Assembly: GCF_030013205.1 (NCBI RefSeq) | Contig: NZ_CP122648.1 | Length of the DNA stretch: 64,000 bases | Source: Escherichia coli | Lineage (GTDB): Bacteria; Pseudomonadota; Gammaproteobacteria; Enterobacterales; Enterobacteriaceae | Strand: one strand, 5' to 3' | Shown here: positions 5,653-44,249 of the stretch, piece by piece | Layout of the letters: every line of letters starts with the position of its first letter | How positions within the stretch are numbered: position 1 is the stretch's first letter | Notes under the pieces: generated by a model | Database searches by the model: none | What the model was told of the DNA's origin: nothing | The model's input: the letters and a program-made list of their open reading frames with translations, nothing else | Made by a program: the position numbers and the translations under genes

Positions 5653-5854
5653 CGAAATAATCTGGCAGTTATAAACGTTTATTTTTTTACTGTTTGTGAT
5701 CTGCTTTCCGAACTTATTAAAAAGTCTCCCGCTTCACGGAGGCTTTTGTTATTGTCCTTTGTGCTTCTCGTGAGTAAATCATCAGGGATGATGTGAAGAT
5801 TAAATGTAAAACAATTGTTTTGCTATAACAATAAATTAACTGGGAGGTTTTATC

Positions 5855-6769
5855 ATGATTTCTGCGGCGACACTTAATTCAGAACTCATTAATAAAATCG
5901 CGCAGGATTTTGCGCAGGCGACCAGCCTTGCGGTTGTCGTGGTCAATATTCACGGCGATGAAATTTCCGAGCTGTTTAACTTCACTCCATTTTGTCAGAT
6001 GATGCGGCAACACCCTCAGCTAAGCACTCGATGTCGCATGAGCGATCGTTGTGGGGGCCTGGAAGCCTCTAAATCCGATCAGCCTTGTATTTATCGCTGT
6101 CATGCCGGATTAACCGATTTCTCTATTCCACTGGTAATCGCCGGGCATTTAGTCGGTTTTGTATTGTGCGGGCAAGTTCGTCTGCGTAATGATGATGTCG
6201 ATTTGGTCGATATTCTGAATGTCGATGATTGCTGGCAGGCAGATCCCGAATTACTTAATGAATTCCGCAAAGTTCCTGAGATGGATTACTCAAGAGTTAT
6301 GGCCTCTGCTGATTTGTTGAAGTTGATTGTGGAAAATTGCCTCAAAAAACAACTCAATTTTGTGGTTATTAAAGAGAACAAATCTCAGTCAGATTCGGTG
6401 CGCCAGACTCGTGCGCCTAATCCCCACGACAATAAAATGAAAAAAGCTTTACGCTATATTGATGCGCATTTATCAGACGATTTGCGTCTGGAAGATGTCG
6501 CCTCGCACGTTTATCTAAGTCCTTATTATTTCAGTAAGTTATTCAAGAAATACCATGGAATCGGTTTTAATGCGTGGGTAAACCAACAACGGATGGCCAG
6601 CGCTCGTGAGTTACTGTGCCATAGTGACTGGAGCATCGCCAGCATTGCGCGTAATTTAGGTTTTTCGCAAACCAGTTATTTTTGCAAAGTTTTCCGTCAA
6701 ACTTATCAGGTTACGCCGCAGGTGTATCGACAGCAAGTGAGTGAAAATGCGGCGATGGAAACGGTATAG
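5855..6769 (+). CDS. pocR: AraC-family regulator of pdu/cob regulon
   Basis: 304 aa ORF with C-terminal AraC HTH, positioned between pduF and the cob leader as in Salmonella. Confidence 0.85.
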   Translation: MISAATLNSELINKIAQDFAQATSLAVVVVNIHGDEISELFNFTPFCQMMRQHPQLSTRCRMSDRCGGLEASKSDQPCIYRCHAGLTDFSIPLVIAGHLVGFVLCGQVRLRNDDVDLVDILNVDDCWQADPELLNEFRKVPEMDYSRVMASADLLKLIVENCLKKQLNFVVIKENKSQSDSVRQTRAPNPHDNKMKKALRYIDAHLSDDLRLEDVASHVYLSPYYFSKLFKKYHGIGFNAWVNQQRMASARELLCHSDWSIASIARNLGFSQTSYFCKVFRQTYQVTPQVYRQQVSENAAMETV

Positions 6770-6869
6770 AGTAAATGCTAAAAAAAGGGAAGGTTTAAAT
6801 AAACGCTGGAATGAATAATTAACGTTATTTACGTGTTATGGGAAAAGTGAAATCAGCTCATAACATACG

Positions 6870-7035
6870 CTGACAGGTGTGGCACATTTGTGCCTGGGAA
6901 GAGGGTGAAAATCCCTCGCAGCCCCCGCTGCTGTAATGCTGACAAACCCGAAAATACCACTGATCGCGAGATTGGGAAGGTCGGGGGAGGATGACGCTAA
7001 GCCAGAAGACCAGCCTGTCAGTCAATACCAACAAC
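6870..7035 (+). promoter_or_regulatory. cobalamin (B12) riboswitch, cob operon leader
   Basis: Conserved riboswitch blocks read directly: gtgcctgggaag...gggtgaaaatccc...gcagcccccgctgctgtaa...B12 box gccagaagaccagcctg. Confidence 0.6.
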
Positions 7036-7181
7036 TTCGGTGGGAAGTGGGTTGCCCGGAAGCGTCCGGTAGAGTACCGGCGCGTCTTTATACCCCTACC
7101 ACCCTGAAAGGATCAGGGTATGGCGGCATCATTTAGTTCTTTCATCGCAGTGCCGACAGGCACCAGGGCTGCACTTAAGGT

Positions 7182-7688
7182 GTGGCAATCTTGTTTCATG
7201 GCTCATCAACCAGACCGACATTACAGGAAACTAAGTGGAGGGCGAGAGGCATGAAAACGATAAAACCCGAATCGATAGCTCTTTTTTGCCTCTTATCTGG
7301 AGATGTGGACCTGGCGAAACATCTGGCTGAAATATTGCCAATAACCTGTTTTGTTGGTGAGGACTGGCAGCAAGATTTCCAGCCTCTTGACGGTGGGCCT
7401 GTGCAATCGTTATCAGATGTGTATGGCGATTATTCAGTGCTGCTATTGATAGCAGCTGAAAGCGAGATATCCGTACCAGAATGGCTCGCTCATTCTGAAG
7501 GAACGACGGTAATTGTGATTGCAGAACACAATGCCCGTTTGCTGACTGGTCCGGCTGGTGGGGCTGTAGCATTAATCCATTATCTGAATGAAATCTGTCA
7601 TTCCAGAGAAACCGCTGTCAATGACGCATTTTGTCGTACGTTAACACGAGGAAGTCTGGCTATTCCGCAATGCCATCTTCTTTCGTAA
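7182..7688 (+). CDS. hypothetical protein; possibly a remnant left by deletion of cbiA-cbiP
   Basis: 168 aa ORF between riboswitch and cobU with no family I can assign; the position where cbi genes lie in Salmonella. Confidence 0.3.
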   Translation: MAILFHGSSTRPTLQETKWRARGMKTIKPESIALFCLLSGDVDLAKHLAEILPITCFVGEDWQQDFQPLDGGPVQSLSDVYGDYSVLLLIAAESEISVPEWLAHSEGTTVIVIAEHNARLLTGPAGGAVALIHYLNEICHSRETAVNDAFCRTLTRGSLAIPQCHLLS

Positions 7689-7820
7689 TGGATTGAGAAT
7701 GCTGGATTTTTAATTGTATTACGCGCAGTATTAATCGCGTAAATGTTTTGCGGTCAGCAACGGTGGGGATCCATTGTTCTGTTCAATGAATACCATCATA
7801 CAATTGAATCAGGAGTCGGT

Positions 7821-8366
7821 ATGATGATTTTGGTGACGGGGGGCGCACGGAGCGGGAAGAGTCGCCACGCAGAGGCGCTTATTGGGGACTCTTCACAGGT
7901 TCTGTATATCGCCACCTCTCAAATCCTTGATGATGAGATGGCTGCACGGATAGAACATCATCGGAAAGGCCGCCCGGCGCACTGGCGCACGGTGGAGCGC
8001 TGGCAACATCTTGATGAATTAATTCATGCAGACATTAACCCGCATGAAGCTGTGTTGCTGGAATGCGTTACCACAATGGTGACTAATCTGTTGTTTGATT
8101 ATGGCGGAGATAAAGACCCTGATGAATGGGATTATCAGGCGATGGAACAGGCGATTAATGCTGAGATTCAGTTGTTGATTGCTGCCTGCCAACGTTGCCC
8201 CGCGAAGATTGTATTAGTGACTAACGAAGTGGGAATGGGGATTGTGCCGGAGAGTCGTTTGGCACGACATTTTCGTGATATTGCCGGGCGGGTAAATCAG
8301 CAGCTGGCCGCTGCGGCAAATGAAGTGTGGCTGGTGGTTTCGGGTATTGGAGTAAAAATCAAATGA
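7821..8366 (+). CDS. cobU: adenosylcobinamide kinase / adenosylcobinamide-phosphate guanylyltransferase
   Basis: ORF 7743-8366; true start likely ATG 7821 ([19 protein letters not shown]-loop) preceded by AGGAG. Confidence 0.9.
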
Positions 8367-9106
8367 GTAAATTATTTTGGGCGATGCTCTCTTTTATTAC
8401 GCGTCTGCCTGTGCCGCGTCGCTGGTCCCAGGGACTGGATTTCGAGCATTATTCTCGCGGTATTATTACTTTTCCTTTAATTGGATTATTGCTTGGCGCG
8501 ATTAGCGGGCTGGTCTTCATGGTGCTGCAGGCATGGTGTGGCGTACCACTGGCGGCACTGTTTAGCGTACTTGTGCTGGCGCTTATGACCGGGGGATTCC
8601 ACCTGGACGGCCTCGCCGATACTTGTGATGGCGTATTTTCTGCACGTAGCCGCGATCGCATGTTGGAAATCATGCGTGATAGCCGTTTAGGTACCCACGG
8701 CGGTCTGGCATTGATTTTTGTTGTACTGGCAAAGATTTTGGTGTTAAGCGAGTTGGCTTTGCGTGGCGAACCGATCCTTGCATCGCTGGCGGCAGCATGC
8801 GCGGTCAGCCGCGGGACTGCCGCATTATTGATGTATCGTCATCGTTATGCCCGGGAAGAAGGGCTTGGCAATGTGTTCATTGGCAAAATTGATGGGCGAC
8901 AAACCTGCGTCACACTCGGTTTAGCCGCTATTTTTGCTGCTGTATTATTGCCAGGTATGCATGGTGTGGCTGCTATGGTGGTGACGATGGTGGCGATTTT
9001 CATCCTCGGTCAGCTTCTCAAACGTACGCTGGGCGGGCAAACCGGCGATACGCTGGGAGCAGCCATAGAGCTTGGTGAACTGGTCTTCCTGCTGGCACTG
9101 CTATAA
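8363..9106 (+). CDS. cobS: cobalamin 5'-phosphate synthase
   Basis: Start ATG overlaps cobU stop (ATGA); [16 protein letters not shown]..., polytopic membrane protein. Confidence 0.9.
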
Positions 9107-9117
9107 AGAGACGTGAC

Positions 9118-10197
9118 ATGCAAACACTTGCCGATTTACTGAATACGATCCCTGCCATCGATCCTGCCGCTATGTCGCGTGCACAACGGCATATCGACGG
9201 GTTACTCAAACCTGTTGGTAGCCTGGGAAGGCTGGAGGCGCTTGCCATACAACTGGCGGGAATGCCGGGGTTGAATGGCATACCGCATGTGGGCAAAAAA
9301 GCGGTACTGGTTATGTGTGCCGATCACGGCGTCTGGGAGGAAGGGGTCGCTATTTCCCCAAAAGAAGTGACAGCCATTCAGGCTGAAAATATGACCCGCG
9401 GAACAACCGGCGTGTGTGTGCTGGCAGCACAAGCGGGCGCTAACGTCCACGTAATTGATGTTGGTATTGATACTGCTGAGCCTATCCCCGGGCTTATCAA
9501 CATGCGTGTCGCACGAGGTAGCGGCAATATTGCTTCAGCTCCGGCAATGAGTCGCCGTCAGGCTGAAAAGTTGCTTTTGGACGTCATATGTTATACGCGG
9601 GAGCTGGCAAAAAACGGTGTCACGCTGTTTGGTGTAGGTGAACTGGGGATGGCAAACACGACACCGGCAGCAGCAATAGTCAGCACAATCACTGGCCGGG
9701 ATCCTGAAGAAGTGGTTGGGATTGGCGCAAACCTGCCGACAGATAAACTGGCTAATAAAATTGATGTTGTGCGTCGGGCGATTACGTTGAATCAACCAAA
9801 TCCTCAGGATGGTGTTGATGTCCTGGCAAAAGTGGGTGGATTTGATTTGGTCGGAATAGCTGGAGTGATGTTAGGTGCTGCTTCCTGCGGTTTACCCGTG
9901 TTGCTGGATGGATTTCTTTCTTATGCTGCTGCGCTCGCAGCCTGCCAGATGTCTCCTGCAATCAAACCGTATCTCATTCCTTCTCACTTGTCGGCAGAAA
10001 AAGGCGCGCGTATAGCGCTGTCGCATTTGGGGCTGGAGCCTTATCTCAATATGGATATGCGTTTAGGTGAGGGGAGTGGTGCAGCTCTGGCGATGCCCAT
10101 CATCGAAGCTGCTTGTGCGATATACAACAACATGGGCGAACTTGCTGCCAGTAATATTGTTCTACCGGGGAATACGACTTCTGATTTGAACAGTTAA
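9118..10197 (+). CDS. cobT: nicotinate-nucleotide--dimethylbenzimidazole phosphoribosyltransferase
   Basis: 359 aa ORF directly after cobS; matches CobT length and sequence. Confidence 0.9.
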
Positions 10198-15557: not shown

Positions 15558-15718
15558 AATTCAAGTTTTCATGCTTATCTGTACGTCTCTATTTGTTTAC
15601 GATTCAGTAAGTTAGCGTGAAAATCCTTCCCGGTGCGTATCTGGTTTTCTCTCTGTATCGGGATAATTTGGTGGTCAGATCTGGGGTCAGTTTGGTTCGA
15701 TTCTGGAGTGACCCCCAA

Positions 15719-16980
15719 ATGTCTTTAAACGATTCTAAAATCCGCAAGTTAAAACCCTCTTCCCGTCCGGTAAAACTCTCCGACTCTCACGGTCTGTATC
15801 TGCTCGTCAATCCGGGCGGTTCACGCATCTGGTATCTCAAATATCGTTTCAACGGAAAAGAATCCAGAGTCAGTCTTGGCGCATACCCGCTTGTCTCACT
15901 GGCAGAAGCCAGGCAACAGCGCGACGGTATCCGTAAGTTACTGGCGCAGAATATCAACCCGGCGCAGCAGCGCATGGCGGAGAAAGCGGCCTGCTCCCCT
16001 GAAAAGTGCTTTAAGGCAGTGGCGCTGGCCTGGCACAAAACCAACAAAAAATGGTCGGCTGATTATGCCGCCCGTATTCTCGCCAGTATGGAAAACCATA
16101 TCTTCCCGGCGATTGGTCATCTGCCAGTTGCCACTCTTAAAACGCAGGATTTACTGCTTTGTTGCGGGTTATCGAGGATAAAGGCTTTCTGGAAGTCGCG
16201 TCCCGAACCCGGCAGCAACTCAGCAACATCATGCGCTATGCCGTTCAGCAGGGGCTTACCGAAAGCAATCCGGCGCAGCATCTGGATGGCGTTGTCGCCT
16301 CACCCGTAAAGAATCACTACCCCGCGTTACTGCTGGAGCGGTTGCCCGAACTGCTTGGCCGCATCGGTGACTATCAGCAGGGCCGGGAGTTAACACGGCT
16401 GGCGGTGGTGCTGACGTTGCACCTGTTTATCCGTTCCAGCGAACTGCGTTTCGCCCGCTGGAGCGAGATCGATTTCAGGCACAAAATCTGGACCATCCCC
16501 GCCACCCGCGAGGCAATCGACAAAGTACGGTTTTCGGGGCGTGGCGCAAAAATACGTACCCCGCATATCGTGCCGCTCTCCCGCCAGGCGATTGCCATTC
16601 TGAAACAGATACAGGAGCTTTCCGGCCATCTGGATCTGGTGTTTCCCGGTGATCATAACCCGTACAAGCCAATGAGTGAAAACACCACCAACCGGGCGCT
16701 ACGCCTGATGGGGTATGATACGAAAACTGAAATCTGCGGGCATGGACTCAGGGCGATGGCCTGTAGCGCCCTGGTGGAGTCGGAGCTGTGGTCACGCGAT
16801 ACGGTGGAGCGGCAAATGAGCCACCAGGAGCGTAACAGCGTGCGGGCAGCCTATGTGCATAAAGCGGAGCATCTGGAGGCCAGAAAGGCCATGATGCAGT
16901 GGTGGTCGGATTATCTGGATGTGTGCCGCGAGGGGTATGTTGCGCCGTACATTTATGCCCGGCAGCATAAGGCAGCCTGA
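15719..16980 (+). pseudogene. P4-type tyrosine integrase, frameshifted
   Basis: Two overlapping ORFs in different frames (15617-16309, 16159-16980) that together span one integrase (MSLNDSKIRKLKP... / ...RHHGLQ-like catalytic C-terminus); frame breaks near 16155-16165. Confidence 0.8.
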
Positions 16981-18935: not shown

Positions 18936-19851
18936 GAATCCCTCTGCAACAAAAACAAACAGTCTCCGGCGTGTGCTTTTTGGCTGCGCCAGAACGATAC
19001 CTTTACGCCGGAGTGGTAGTTTGTTGAGGTTTAGGGAGTTTCAGGCTGTACGCAGTACAGACTGCCTGCGAAGCAGGAGTGTCTCCGGGGCTTCTTGCCC
19101 CCCTCGGTATCGATCTTTTTCTCCTTTACTCTTAGCTGACAGCGGCCCCAAAGGGCATGTCAGACGGCGGAAATATGGCGCAGGCCAGAACTGGCGCGGC
19201 TTGTGGCGGTAAGTTGTGCGGCGTCACTTTGCTTTTTCGCTGGCGCGACCAAAGTGACGCCTCGTCTGGTGCAGGGGGTAAACGTTACGTTTCTGGTGCA
19301 GGGTGACGGTCACGCGGCAGCAAAGCCTGACGGCAATGCAGGCCGCAGCCCGTCAATGTAAGGCGCTGGTTGTCAGCAGAAGATAAAACCCGGCAAAGCC
19401 AGAGTGTCAGCCCGTAAAGCCGGGTATCTGGTGCAGTGATGGTGTATATGTACGTCAGTCTCAGATGCAGGTATTTTTGCATCCCCGGCGTTTTCAGAGA
19501 TCAACGCCGGTAAAGGATGCCATGCTGGCGAAGCCAGGCGCTTCTTTCAGACGTGAAGCGACAAAGGGACTGCCCGGAGGCAGTTTGTTGCAGGCGGGAG
19601 ACTGCGCCATTATTTCTGGTGCAGGAAGGAAAAACTGTTTCCGGGTTTAAAAGATTGTTTGCTTACCTGGTGACGGAAAAACTGCCGCGCTTCGCTTGTC
19701 TTCTCCCGGCGCGCTGCCAGCAAAAGCAGGCAGCGCGCCGGGAGAGTCTGGTTTTACTGTAACAATGCGCCTGACGGTTCAGCCATCAGGATCGGCGTTT
19801 ATGCATGAGTCTTCCGGTACGGTTGCCCCGATCATCGATGTATCTGGACGG

Positions 19852-20498: not shown

Positions 20499-21019
20499 AA
20501 GGCCGTCTACAGTGAGTGATAAATATTCCAGCCACTGGAGAGGCTAATCTCACGGGTGGTGGAACCGGACGGGGTTAGCCTTACCAGCCTCACTGACACT
20601 GGCGCGTCTTTCGACGCCCCCGCCCGATCCCGCCATTGAGATGAGACCGTGCGCGACACACAAATATTGTATCGTCAGTGAGGATCTTCAGGAGGCTAAT
20701 CCCGACGCCTGATTTTGCAGGCGCGGCGCAACAATACAATGTTCGGTAATTTTCAGCAAGAGGTTTAGCGGAAGCAGACGCACAGGAAAATACAATCACG
20801 CGATAAATATTAAATACAATTATATTTATATAAAATATATATTGAGCAATATGCAGACACTTTCCAGTAAATATCCTGTCAGTTAATTCGTCCCGTTGAT
20901 ATCAGTCAAAAAAATAAATGTAAAAAGAGCGTATTTCGTTTCATACAGTAACGTTATTTATCATTTTGTCCGGTGTCGCCAGCATCAGGCCAGATGAACC
21001 ATAAAAAAGGATATCAGCG

Positions 21020-44196: not shown

Positions 44197-44249
44197 TGGC
44201 GGCAGAGCAGTCACGGAGTAAAACTGATACCGCCAAACGTCACCAGAAA
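44197..44249 (-). ncRNA. dicF: DicF small RNA
   Basis: Reverse complement reads tttctggtgacgtttggcggtatcagttttactccgtgactgctctgccgcc, just upstream of dicB. Confidence 0.7.

Follow-up and report, generated by a model that had tools for sequence, protein, structure and literature searches.

In a window of 64,000 nt of Escherichia coli DNA (the whole stretch analysed; NCBI RefSeq assembly GCF_030013205.1, contig NZ_CP122648.1), a cobalamin riboswitch was found between pocR and the cobinamide salvage genes cobU, cobS and cobT (cobUST), followed by remnants of cbi genes. In the reading preferred here, to which a probability of roughly 55% is given, this is an orthologous adenosylcobalamin (AdoCbl) riboswitch, complete in its aptamer and translational platform, that would head an operon reduced by two deletions and act on cobUST by read-through. 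A previous prediction, made from the sequence alone, had proposed that a B12 riboswitch was retained here upstream of a cob remnant. The features of the locus are as follows (SD, Shine–Dalgarno sequence; ORF, open reading frame):

5855-6769, + strand: pocR, propanediol-responsive AraC-type activator (Pfam PocR and HTH_AraC; RefSeq)
6822-6857, + strand: block just 5' of the aptamer, a candidate promoter or transcription-start region
6858-7032, + strand: Cobalamin (AdoCbl) riboswitch aptamer (Rfam RF00174)
7028-7052, + strand: 25-mer CCAACAACTTCGGTGGGAAGTGGGT, candidate anti-sequestor, corresponding to the 'translational enhancer' region
7033-7119, + strand: expression platform, ending in an SD-sequestering hairpin
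7120-7254, + strand: 44-codon stump ORF (cbiA'/'cbiF), made of the cbiA start codon and the cbiF 3' end
7168-7196, + strand: terminator-like hairpin and U-run inside the 44-codon ORF (+49 to +77), conceivably a translation-sensitive attenuator
7251-7688, + strand: cbiG', 145 aa, N-terminal stump of cobalt-precorrin-5A hydrolase (NCBIfam NF004463; Salmonella CbiG)
7689-7820, + strand: intergenic stretch of 132 nt with the decayed cbiP 3' end (homology to Salmonella)
7821-8366, + strand: cobU, nucleotide-loop assembly in cobinamide salvage (Pfam CobU; RefSeq)
8363-9106, + strand: cobS, nucleotide-loop assembly in cobinamide salvage (Pfam CobS; RefSeq)
9118-10197, + strand: cobT, nucleotide-loop assembly in cobinamide salvage (Pfam DBI_PRT; RefSeq)

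The 2.6 kb around the riboswitch were 100% identical to E. coli CFSAN018748 in a genome nucleotide comparison. In that strain, the RefSeq order is pduA-X on the opposite strand, pduF, pocR, 'riboswitch (cobalamin)', 'hypothetical protein', cobU, cobS, cobT and ldtA, and this annotation agreed with the Pfam domains in placing pocR upstream and cobUST downstream of the riboswitch, as had been proposed. Between the riboswitch and cobUST only stumps of cbi genes were found, in accordance with the predicted deletion of these genes, and cobUST are the sole complete cob genes that remain on the strand of the riboswitch. In Salmonella, the cob promoter is driven by PocR.

The retention of the riboswitch was confirmed by an Rfam scan, in which the RF00174 match reached 113.8 bits against a gathering score of 31.5 (E 9e-28) and covered model positions 1-189 of 189 with no truncation. 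The start first assigned to the element, 6870, fell 12 nt inside the aptamer, whose true start is 6858. At the B12-box core (…AGCCAGAAGACCnGCC…), the sequence AAGCCAGAAGACCAGCCUG aligned to the model consensus with zero mismatches in the cmscan alignment, and it was invariant in Escherichia, Salmonella and Klebsiella except for the variable base before GCC. The aptamer was as good as those ahead of complete operons, which scored 106.9 bits in Salmonella and 98.1 bits in Klebsiella, and scores of 105-114 bits were obtained in every Escherichia lineage. It is followed on the + strand by cbiA', cbiG' and cobUST, and thus occupies the leader of cobalamin-related genes. Its conservation alone would speak for binding of AdoCbl followed by a conformational change, and the RNA is a typical representative of its riboswitch family, placed in a context that is unusual and reduced.

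The SD hairpin at the end of the expression platform (7101-7119) consists of ACCCTGA (7101-7107), the loop AAGGA, which is the SD sequence itself (7108-7112), and TCAGGGT (7113-7119), with ATG 7120 immediately after. An SD sequence held in a hairpin before the start codon is the arrangement of a translational OFF platform of the Salmonella cob or E. coli btuB type. By folding, the hairpin had a stability of about -11 kcal/mol in five of the six Escherichia lineages, and it was nearly identical in Salmonella and Citrobacter. At the beginning of the platform, the 25-mer CCAACAACTTCGGTGGGAAGTGGGT was identical in 7/7 aligned leaders (Escherichia lineages, Salmonella and Klebsiella), and an exact-match scan that covered one genome per species returned 40 loci, distributed over Citrobacter, Salmonella, Klebsiella, Edwardsiella, Raoultella, Yokenella, Intestinirhabdus and Escherichia. 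In the minimum free energy fold, the 25-mer paired with 7091-7103, bringing GGUGGG (7039-7044) together with the CCUACC region just 5' of the hairpin, in folds that were no better than those of shuffled sequences (z = -0.8 and -1.6). The invariance of the 25-mer leaves no covariation for checking this anti-sequestor pairing. As the fold of the whole leader was also no better than shuffles (z = -0.8), thermodynamic folding alone is neutral on the model.

When aligned with Salmonella, window positions 6854-7128 were 83% identical over 275 nt to the pocR-cbiA intergenic leader, and the alignment ended just beyond the cbiA ATG, which corresponds to window 7120. The proposed orthology to the Salmonella cbiA leader was borne out in this way, with the same place after pocR and with the SD hairpin and the cbiA ATG included. 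The cob leader of Salmonella enterica likewise carries an RF00174 riboswitch, the invariant 25-mer and an SD hairpin (ACCCUGA...UCAGGGU) that abuts the cbiA ATG, although its loop is ACAGGA instead of AAGGA. In Salmonella, the switch heads about 20 genes (cbiA-P and cobUST) in a complete operon, whereas here 15 cbi genes have been lost; of cbiA about 15 codons remain, fused to the end of cbiF, and of cbiG about 120 codons. Work by Richter-Dahlfors, Ravnum and Andersson between 1994 and 2001 reportedly established that B12 represses cbiA translation through the SD hairpin, and that an upstream 'translational enhancer' opens this hairpin. For the comparisons made here, the complete pdu-cob loci of Salmonella and Klebsiella were taken from two chromosome pieces filed as plasmids.

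Only one ORF had been noticed before cobUST. A second one, of 44 codons, starts with ATG 7120 directly behind the SD hairpin; it is unannotated and uses the authentic cbiA start codon. It begins MAASFSSFIAVPTG…, where the CbiA protein of Citrobacter begins MAASFHAFVLAGTGSGCGKTT, and its codons 1 to about 15 come from cbiA (MAASFSSFIAVPTGT versus MAASFHAFVLAGTGS in Citrobacter). By tblastx, Citrobacter cbiA matched at 7102-7164 and the cbiF/cbiG junction from 7218 onward, and the last 11 codons or so of the ORF are the cbiF 3' end. Of CbiA, a full amidotransferase of about 459 aa with the P-loop GTGSGCGKTT, only the start codon and about 15 codons are left. The TGA of the 44-codon ORF (7252-7254) overlaps the ATG of cbiG' at 7251 (ATGA). 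The hairpin and U-run at 7168-7196 were the only terminator-like site in 6700-8000, and shuffled sequences gave as many; the U-run is conserved, and the stability of the stem varied from -3 to -11 kcal/mol among lineages.

The ORF noticed before, 168 aa at 7182-7688, is indeed present in the sequence, but it had been called unassignable, and it is an N-terminal stump of CbiG. It matched positions 1-125 of the 351 of NF004463 (E 1e-18), and residues 1-112 of cbiG' aligned with residues 1-119 of Salmonella CbiG with 43% identity (E 6e-24). The extension that begins at GTG 7182 is open only in this E. coli lineage and has an in-frame stop in the other Escherichia lineages; therefore, the conserved ORF is that of 145 aa from ATG 7251. 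Besides the ATGA coupling, cbiG' has its own GGAGG 10 nt upstream. With 67.6 bits, it does not reach the equivalog cut-off of NF004463 (546 bits), being homologous to but not a member of the family, and at 145 aa it lacks the three-domain organization (CbiG_N, CbiG_mid and CbiG_C) of the CbiG proteins of about 350 aa. In a Pfam scan, the three domains were all found in Salmonella CbiG, whereas there was no match at E<=10 for the 168/145-aa ORF or for its counterparts in E. fergusonii and in the enterobacterial strain RIT691, which is more distant. Among the protein family models, it was that of NCBIfam alone that revealed the homology. In the stump, TGPAGGAV replaces SGHAGGAN (the SGHxGGAN motif of CbiG_N), and the block DPVITTATD is deleted in all Escherichia stumps, E. 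fergusonii included; the RIT691 ORF stops just before this block. The ORF is named 'hypothetical protein' in RefSeq and 'CbiG' in strain LF82. An antisense ORF of 113 aa (7231-7572, - strand) was considered and discarded, as it contains stops in all the other lineages.

Homology to Salmonella resumes 31 nt before cobU (7790), in the cbiP 3' end, and a weak collinear match to the same cbiP end was seen at 7714-7768. At least two deletions would account for the present arrangement, one from about codon 15 of cbiA to the cbiF 3' end and another from about codon 120 of cbiG to the cbiP 3' end. For segments 7165-7217 and 7590-7713, no significantly similar counterpart was found among the cbi genes of Salmonella, Klebsiella and Citrobacter, so that the deletion junctions can be placed only approximately.

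Signs of selection were sought in an alignment of six Escherichia lineages, with divergence measured from this window and variable sites counted per segment:

aptamer: divergence 3-6%, variable sites 14%
platform: divergence 5-9%, variable sites 18%
44-codon ORF: divergence 16-27%, variable sites 47%
cbiG': divergence 16-20%, variable sites 40%
gap between cbiG' and cobU: divergence 8-22%, variable sites 32%
cobU: divergence 10-12% (excluding E. albertii, in which cobU is broken), variable sites 32%

Compared with the 44-codon ORF (131 nt), fewer sites were variable both in the aptamer (p = 1e-10) and in the platform (p = 1e-5, Fisher tests). Aptamer and platform appear as the best-conserved parts of the locus, which points to purifying selection on the RNA. 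Just 5' of the aptamer, the block 6822-6857 had 24% variable sites in the same alignment, compared to 40% in the spacer 6770-6821. In the 3' end of pocR and the spacer (6710-6857), the difference to one lineage (L008/L009, of E. whittamii type) was about 4.5% and that to the others about 21%, while downstream L008 was as diverged as the other lineages; this resembles a recombination breakpoint near the aptamer.

Both stump ORFs were open in 6/6 Escherichia lineages, with constant length and with the ATGA overlap kept. When the observed substitutions were re-placed at random, the probability that all lineages stay open by chance was 0.08 for the 44-codon ORF and 0.002 for cbiG'. With a method corrected for transition/transversion bias, the median ratio of nonsynonymous to synonymous substitution rates (dN/dS) was 0.91 for the 44-codon ORF, 0.53 (range 0.38-0.79) for cbiG', 0.47 for the CbiG-homologous part of the latter and 0.21 for cobU. 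These values suggest that the 44-codon ORF is kept as a reading frame and not as a peptide, and that the protein encoded by cbiG' experiences weak purifying selection. In K-12-type genomes, the leftover piece of the locus has a 9-bp deletion and a premature stop, and it is 88-90% identical where cobU is 95% identical; once disconnected, the piece seems to decay in BL21/K-12-type genomes. Aptamer integrity, orthology, platform conservation and the architecture and conservation of the ORFs are thus matters of direct observation here.

For the function of the locus, we infer the response to the ligand, the polarity onto cobUST and the positions of the promoters. Transcripts would begin at a PocR-dependent cob promoter (PocR control of cob is reviewed in PMC8123684), with a predicted start at about 6840-6857, or would extend into the leader from pocR. 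In the absence of AdoCbl, the SD hairpin would be held open by the invariant segment 7039-7052 upstream of it, the 44-codon ORF would be translated, followed by cbiG' through ATGA coupling, and transcription would reach cobUST. With AdoCbl, the hairpin 7101-7119 would shut and leave the stump ORFs untranslated, and transcription of the untranslated RNA would end early, through Rho or at the hairpin and U-run 7168-7196. As a result, the propanediol-induced share of cobUST expression would be placed under B12 feedback repression, and basal expression would come from a weaker, switch-independent promoter near cobU. The near-neutral evolution of the 44-codon ORF would be expected if only its translation matters. 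The original prediction had the switch gate the salvage genes directly; the gating is backed by the common strand and by the absence of a conserved terminator, but it would not be direct, as it would have to pass both stump ORFs, which are translated, and then 132 nt of decayed cbiP.

Two characterized systems offer precedents for such a relay. The AdoCbl switch of E. coli btuB turns translation off by SD sequestration, followed by Rho termination in the first ORF at +81 to +210, and an early attenuator has been suggested at +18 to +48 (PMC11162775). It belongs to the same Rfam family, and the hairpin and U-run found here, which recall that early attenuator, occupy +49 to +77 of the first ORF; however, the btuB leader is a paralogue that precedes a functional transporter gene, whereas here two stumps come first and the functional genes lie 700 nt further on. 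In Mycobacterium tuberculosis ppe2, a short upstream ORF is translated under the control of a B12 switch, and the downstream gene needs this translation, via termination-reinitiation (PMC11260477). This control through a leader ORF matches the ATGA junction between the 44-codon ORF and cbiG', although riboswitch class and organism are unrelated, and the upstream ORF is a dedicated one there and a remainder of cbiA and cbiF here.

A closer parallel was found in Raoultella, in which cobD is followed by the riboswitch (81-90 bits), a cbiA stump of 20-21 codons and cbiB-cbiP-cobU-cobS (loci L031, L044, L045 and L050). The riboswitch is of the same lineage, with the exact 25-mer, and the start codon, the SD hairpin and an ATGA overlap are kept there too: the cbiA stump has been reduced in frame, its stop overlaps the cbiB ATG, and only late and salvage genes are left. 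In contrast with E. coli, the aptamer lacks the hairpin found at window 6880-6893, cobD and not pocR/pdu lies upstream of the switch, there is no cbiG stump and the first complete gene comes immediately next. The Raoultella reduction is an independent deletion and a natural replicate. That Raoultella and Escherichia both keep the regulated start and the coupled junction would be the strongest comparative argument for a switch that governs what remains of the operon.

Within E. coli, the complete pocR-riboswitch-ORF-cobU arrangement was present in 641-644 of the 5,426 complete genomes (12%), and cobU in 5,401 of them. In about 88%, cobUST are kept without the switch, after only 160-300 nt of native upstream DNA. 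Endpoints of the deletions were located at about window 7348 and 7356 (fused to a pduV stump), at 7517 (the K-12 type, which is the majority), at 7562 (O157:H7) and at 7634-7656, and every variant retains at least 160 nt upstream of cobU; the switch was lost in several independent deletions. The contrast with K-12 that had been pointed out was found in the BL21/K-12-type genomes, which match only from window 7517 onward, behind remnants of insertion sequences, and which have a PduV stump beside tmaR at the far end of the former locus. The same arrangement as in the window was also present in E. albertii, E. marmotae, E. whittamii and other Escherichia lineages, and the adherent-invasive strain LF82 has the same cbiG stump adjoining pocR and pdu.

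Part of this was already on record, as RefSeq annotates the riboswitch automatically and the LF82 genome names the ORF 'CbiG'. In a literature search, no paper describing this E. coli riboswitch was found, the LF82 expression table that lists 'CbiG' being the only trace. Nor was any description found in the searchable literature of the remnant anatomy (the regulated cbiA start and the coupled stump ORFs), or of the conservation of the switch throughout the genus and its persistence without cobUST. For the annotation, the comparisons would call for the 'hypothetical protein' to be corrected to a CbiG stump and for the extra ORF at the regulated start codon to be added.

Several observations weigh against control of cobUST by the switch. 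The salvage genes are kept, and presumably expressed, in the roughly 88% of E. coli that do without it; therefore, the switch is dispensable for salvage, and a switch-independent promoter of cobU must exist nearby. The original prediction had regarded a cobU promoter of its own, combined with a lack of read-through, as contrary to itself, and this probably applies in part; such a promoter is compatible with control by read-through. No sigma-70-like promoter was found in 6700-8000, so that both promoters of the model are placed by inference; the missing consensus fits an activator-dependent promoter without demonstrating one. The sole candidate noticed for cobU is a conserved TACAAT at 7799-7804, ahead of the SD sequence AGGAG of this gene at 7811-7815. 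The 132 nt between cbiG' and cobU are untranslated, and the C-rich, G-poor signature of Rho loading (rut-like) was absent from 7120-7800. In favour of control by the switch, no conserved intrinsic terminator was found in this gap; a hairpin at 7717-7743 was considered as a terminator or operator and rejected, as its right arm is not conserved in other species. The dN/dS of cbiG', about 0.5, is lower than a pure translation relay needs. Finally, the switch and cbiG' are kept without cobUST in E. fergusonii and RIT691, or with a broken cobU in E. albertii, so gating of cobUST is not the sole reason for their retention. Conservation of the switch over the whole genus, even where the salvage genes are missing, suggests that it still does something.

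These last observations favour a second explanation, possible although clearly less probable, in which the selected unit is the riboswitch plus cbiG' itself, the stump protein or the leader RNA having a B12-regulated role of its own tied to pocR/pdu, with any control of cobUST being incidental. In E. fergusonii, pdu-pduF-pocR are followed by the riboswitch (112.9 bits), whose SD hairpin and ATG are those of E. coli, an ORF of 49 codons that overlaps a cbiG' of 156 aa (the length in most members of its cluster), an element resembling repetitive extragenic palindromes and ldtA (L016, 9488-10700), and cobUST are absent. Identity between E. coli and E. fergusonii was 88% in the aptamer and 93% in the platform, compared to 79% in pocR, 74% in pduF, 78% in ldtA, 66% in cbiG' and 56% in the short ORF. 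The E. coli-group and E. fergusonii stumps share two indels with respect to true CbiG and therefore come from one truncated ancestor. RIT691, which represents a different genus-level lineage, does not have these indels; it keeps pocR, the riboswitch (103.4 bits) and a fused cbiA'::cbiG' ORF of 179 aa, followed by nac, with cobUST absent. In E. albertii, the riboswitch and both stump ORFs are intact, although cobU is shattered by several deletions and stops and cobT is lost, cobS being followed by ldtA (L004-L006, 10436-10957; L018).

The same explanation agrees with the dN/dS of cbiG' (0.53), clearly under the 0.91 of the neighbouring ORF, and with the 0.002 probability that it stays open by chance. 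It also agrees with the fact that the E. coli deletions that take pdu also take the switch and the start of cbiG', with the need of the pdu system for B12, and with the transcription of cbiG' in LF82 (LF82_328), at 13-17 reads per kilobase per million mapped reads (PMC4509574). On the other hand, the stump is devoid of the motifs that define CbiG_N and of any Pfam match, and as a protein it evolves two to three times faster than cobU. An AlphaFold2 model built on a 13-sequence alignment was weak (predicted local distance difference test, 62; predicted template modelling score, 0.59), and when it was searched against the Protein Data Bank with Foldseek, the neighbours were generic alpha/beta folds, PurE among them (template modelling score 0.38), none of which fell below E = 0.01, so no function can be named. 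In addition, 88% of E. coli manage without the module, and, as a mundane alternative, E. fergusonii and RIT691 could have lost cobUST recently on the scale of the measured divergence. A stronger version, and a more doubtful one, would have the riboswitch and the truncated CbiG co-opted across Escherichia and RIT691 as a self-standing B12-regulated module of pocR/pdu that would serve neither corrin synthesis nor cobUST; it might, for instance, report on cobalamin or handle it on behalf of propanediol breakdown, which depends on B12.

It is unlikely that the locus is a relic, with a switch that may continue to bind B12 and to control the stumps' translation to no physiological effect, being kept by inertia and linkage to pocR/pdu while cobUST are served entirely by their own promoter. 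The several independent E. coli deletions that drop the switch and keep cobUST with at least 160 nt upstream would suit this explanation, as would the lack of a rut-like signature and of consensus promoters and the neutral evolution of the 44-codon peptide. However, neutral relics would not be expected to behave over genus-level time as this locus does. Across the six Escherichia lineages, the flanks diverge by 16-27% and the aptamer and platform by only 3-6% and 5-9%, with 14-18% variable sites against 47% (p = 1e-10 and 1e-5). The Rfam scores are undiminished at 105-114 bits in every lineage, and both ORFs are still open, whereas the piece cut off in K-12-type strains did decay.

Least probable is action of the switch upstream, as the 3' region of pduF-pocR transcripts whose termination or stability it would tune by B12 status, matching pdu induction to cofactor supply: no terminator-like site was found between the pocR stop (6769) and the aptamer in the scan of 6700-8000, the switch always accompanies pocR in Escherichia and RIT691 and is retained where cobUST are lost, and non-classical tuning of pocR by a B12 riboswitch is discussed in the literature on antisense-acting riboswitches (PMC9943018), but this is a conjecture throughout, the platform, which sequesters the SD sequence in a hairpin of classical type before a start codon, faces downstream, no structure joins the aptamer to the pocR coding region, and Raoultella has the same switch with cobD, not pocR, upstream.

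Some further observations were made on the comparison loci and on the rest of the window. The sources of the complete pdu-cob loci, PLSDB entries CP075030.1 (Salmonella, 302 kb) and CP125156.1 (Klebsiella, 5.37 Mb), are filed as plasmids but contain the pdu-cob region of the chromosome together with its neighbours; they seem to be parts of chromosomes or entire ones. Escherichia sp. MOD1-EC7003 (L054) has pduA-pduF-pocR-riboswitch followed by full-length cbiA, with a Klebsiella-like leader and the SD hairpin variant of Klebsiella spallanzanii; complete cob operons therefore occur in Escherichia as well, probably by transfer. In E. fergusonii, a choline-type glycyl-radical microcompartment cluster lies a few kb beyond ldtA. 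Between pduF and pocR, the window has a match to the enterobacterial small RNA STnc230 (Rfam, 69.2 bits; 5711-5794, - strand), in the same position as in Salmonella, Klebsiella, E. fergusonii, E. marmotae and E. albertii. Downstream of the cob locus, Rfam matches were obtained for EFASI RNA (18991-19118, - strand, 100.8 bits), C4 antisense RNA (20552-20640, - strand, 62.2 bits) and DicF (44197-44248, - strand, 73.4 bits), and the tRNA model had nine matches across the window, from 11253 to 54343, three of which, within locus L001, are annotated as tRNA-Asn. These matches point to integrated elements downstream of the cob locus. Downstream of yeeO, after the third tRNA-Asn, RefSeq has a frameshifted tyrosine-type integrase (window region 15700-16400; L001 17920-18601), and an island that inserted at a tRNA-Asn gene probably has its edge here.

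The locus provides a view of the fate of a riboswitch after the destruction of its operon. What the surviving deletions left in place, here and independently in Raoultella, was the aptamer, the SD hairpin, the regulated start codon and a junction coupled in translation to the next reading frame. Such a pattern suggests that selection acted on the operon's regulatory head as the cargo shrank. If control of the remaining genes by read-through is true, propanediol-using E. coli could tie cobinamide salvage to both propanediol induction and B12 feedback.

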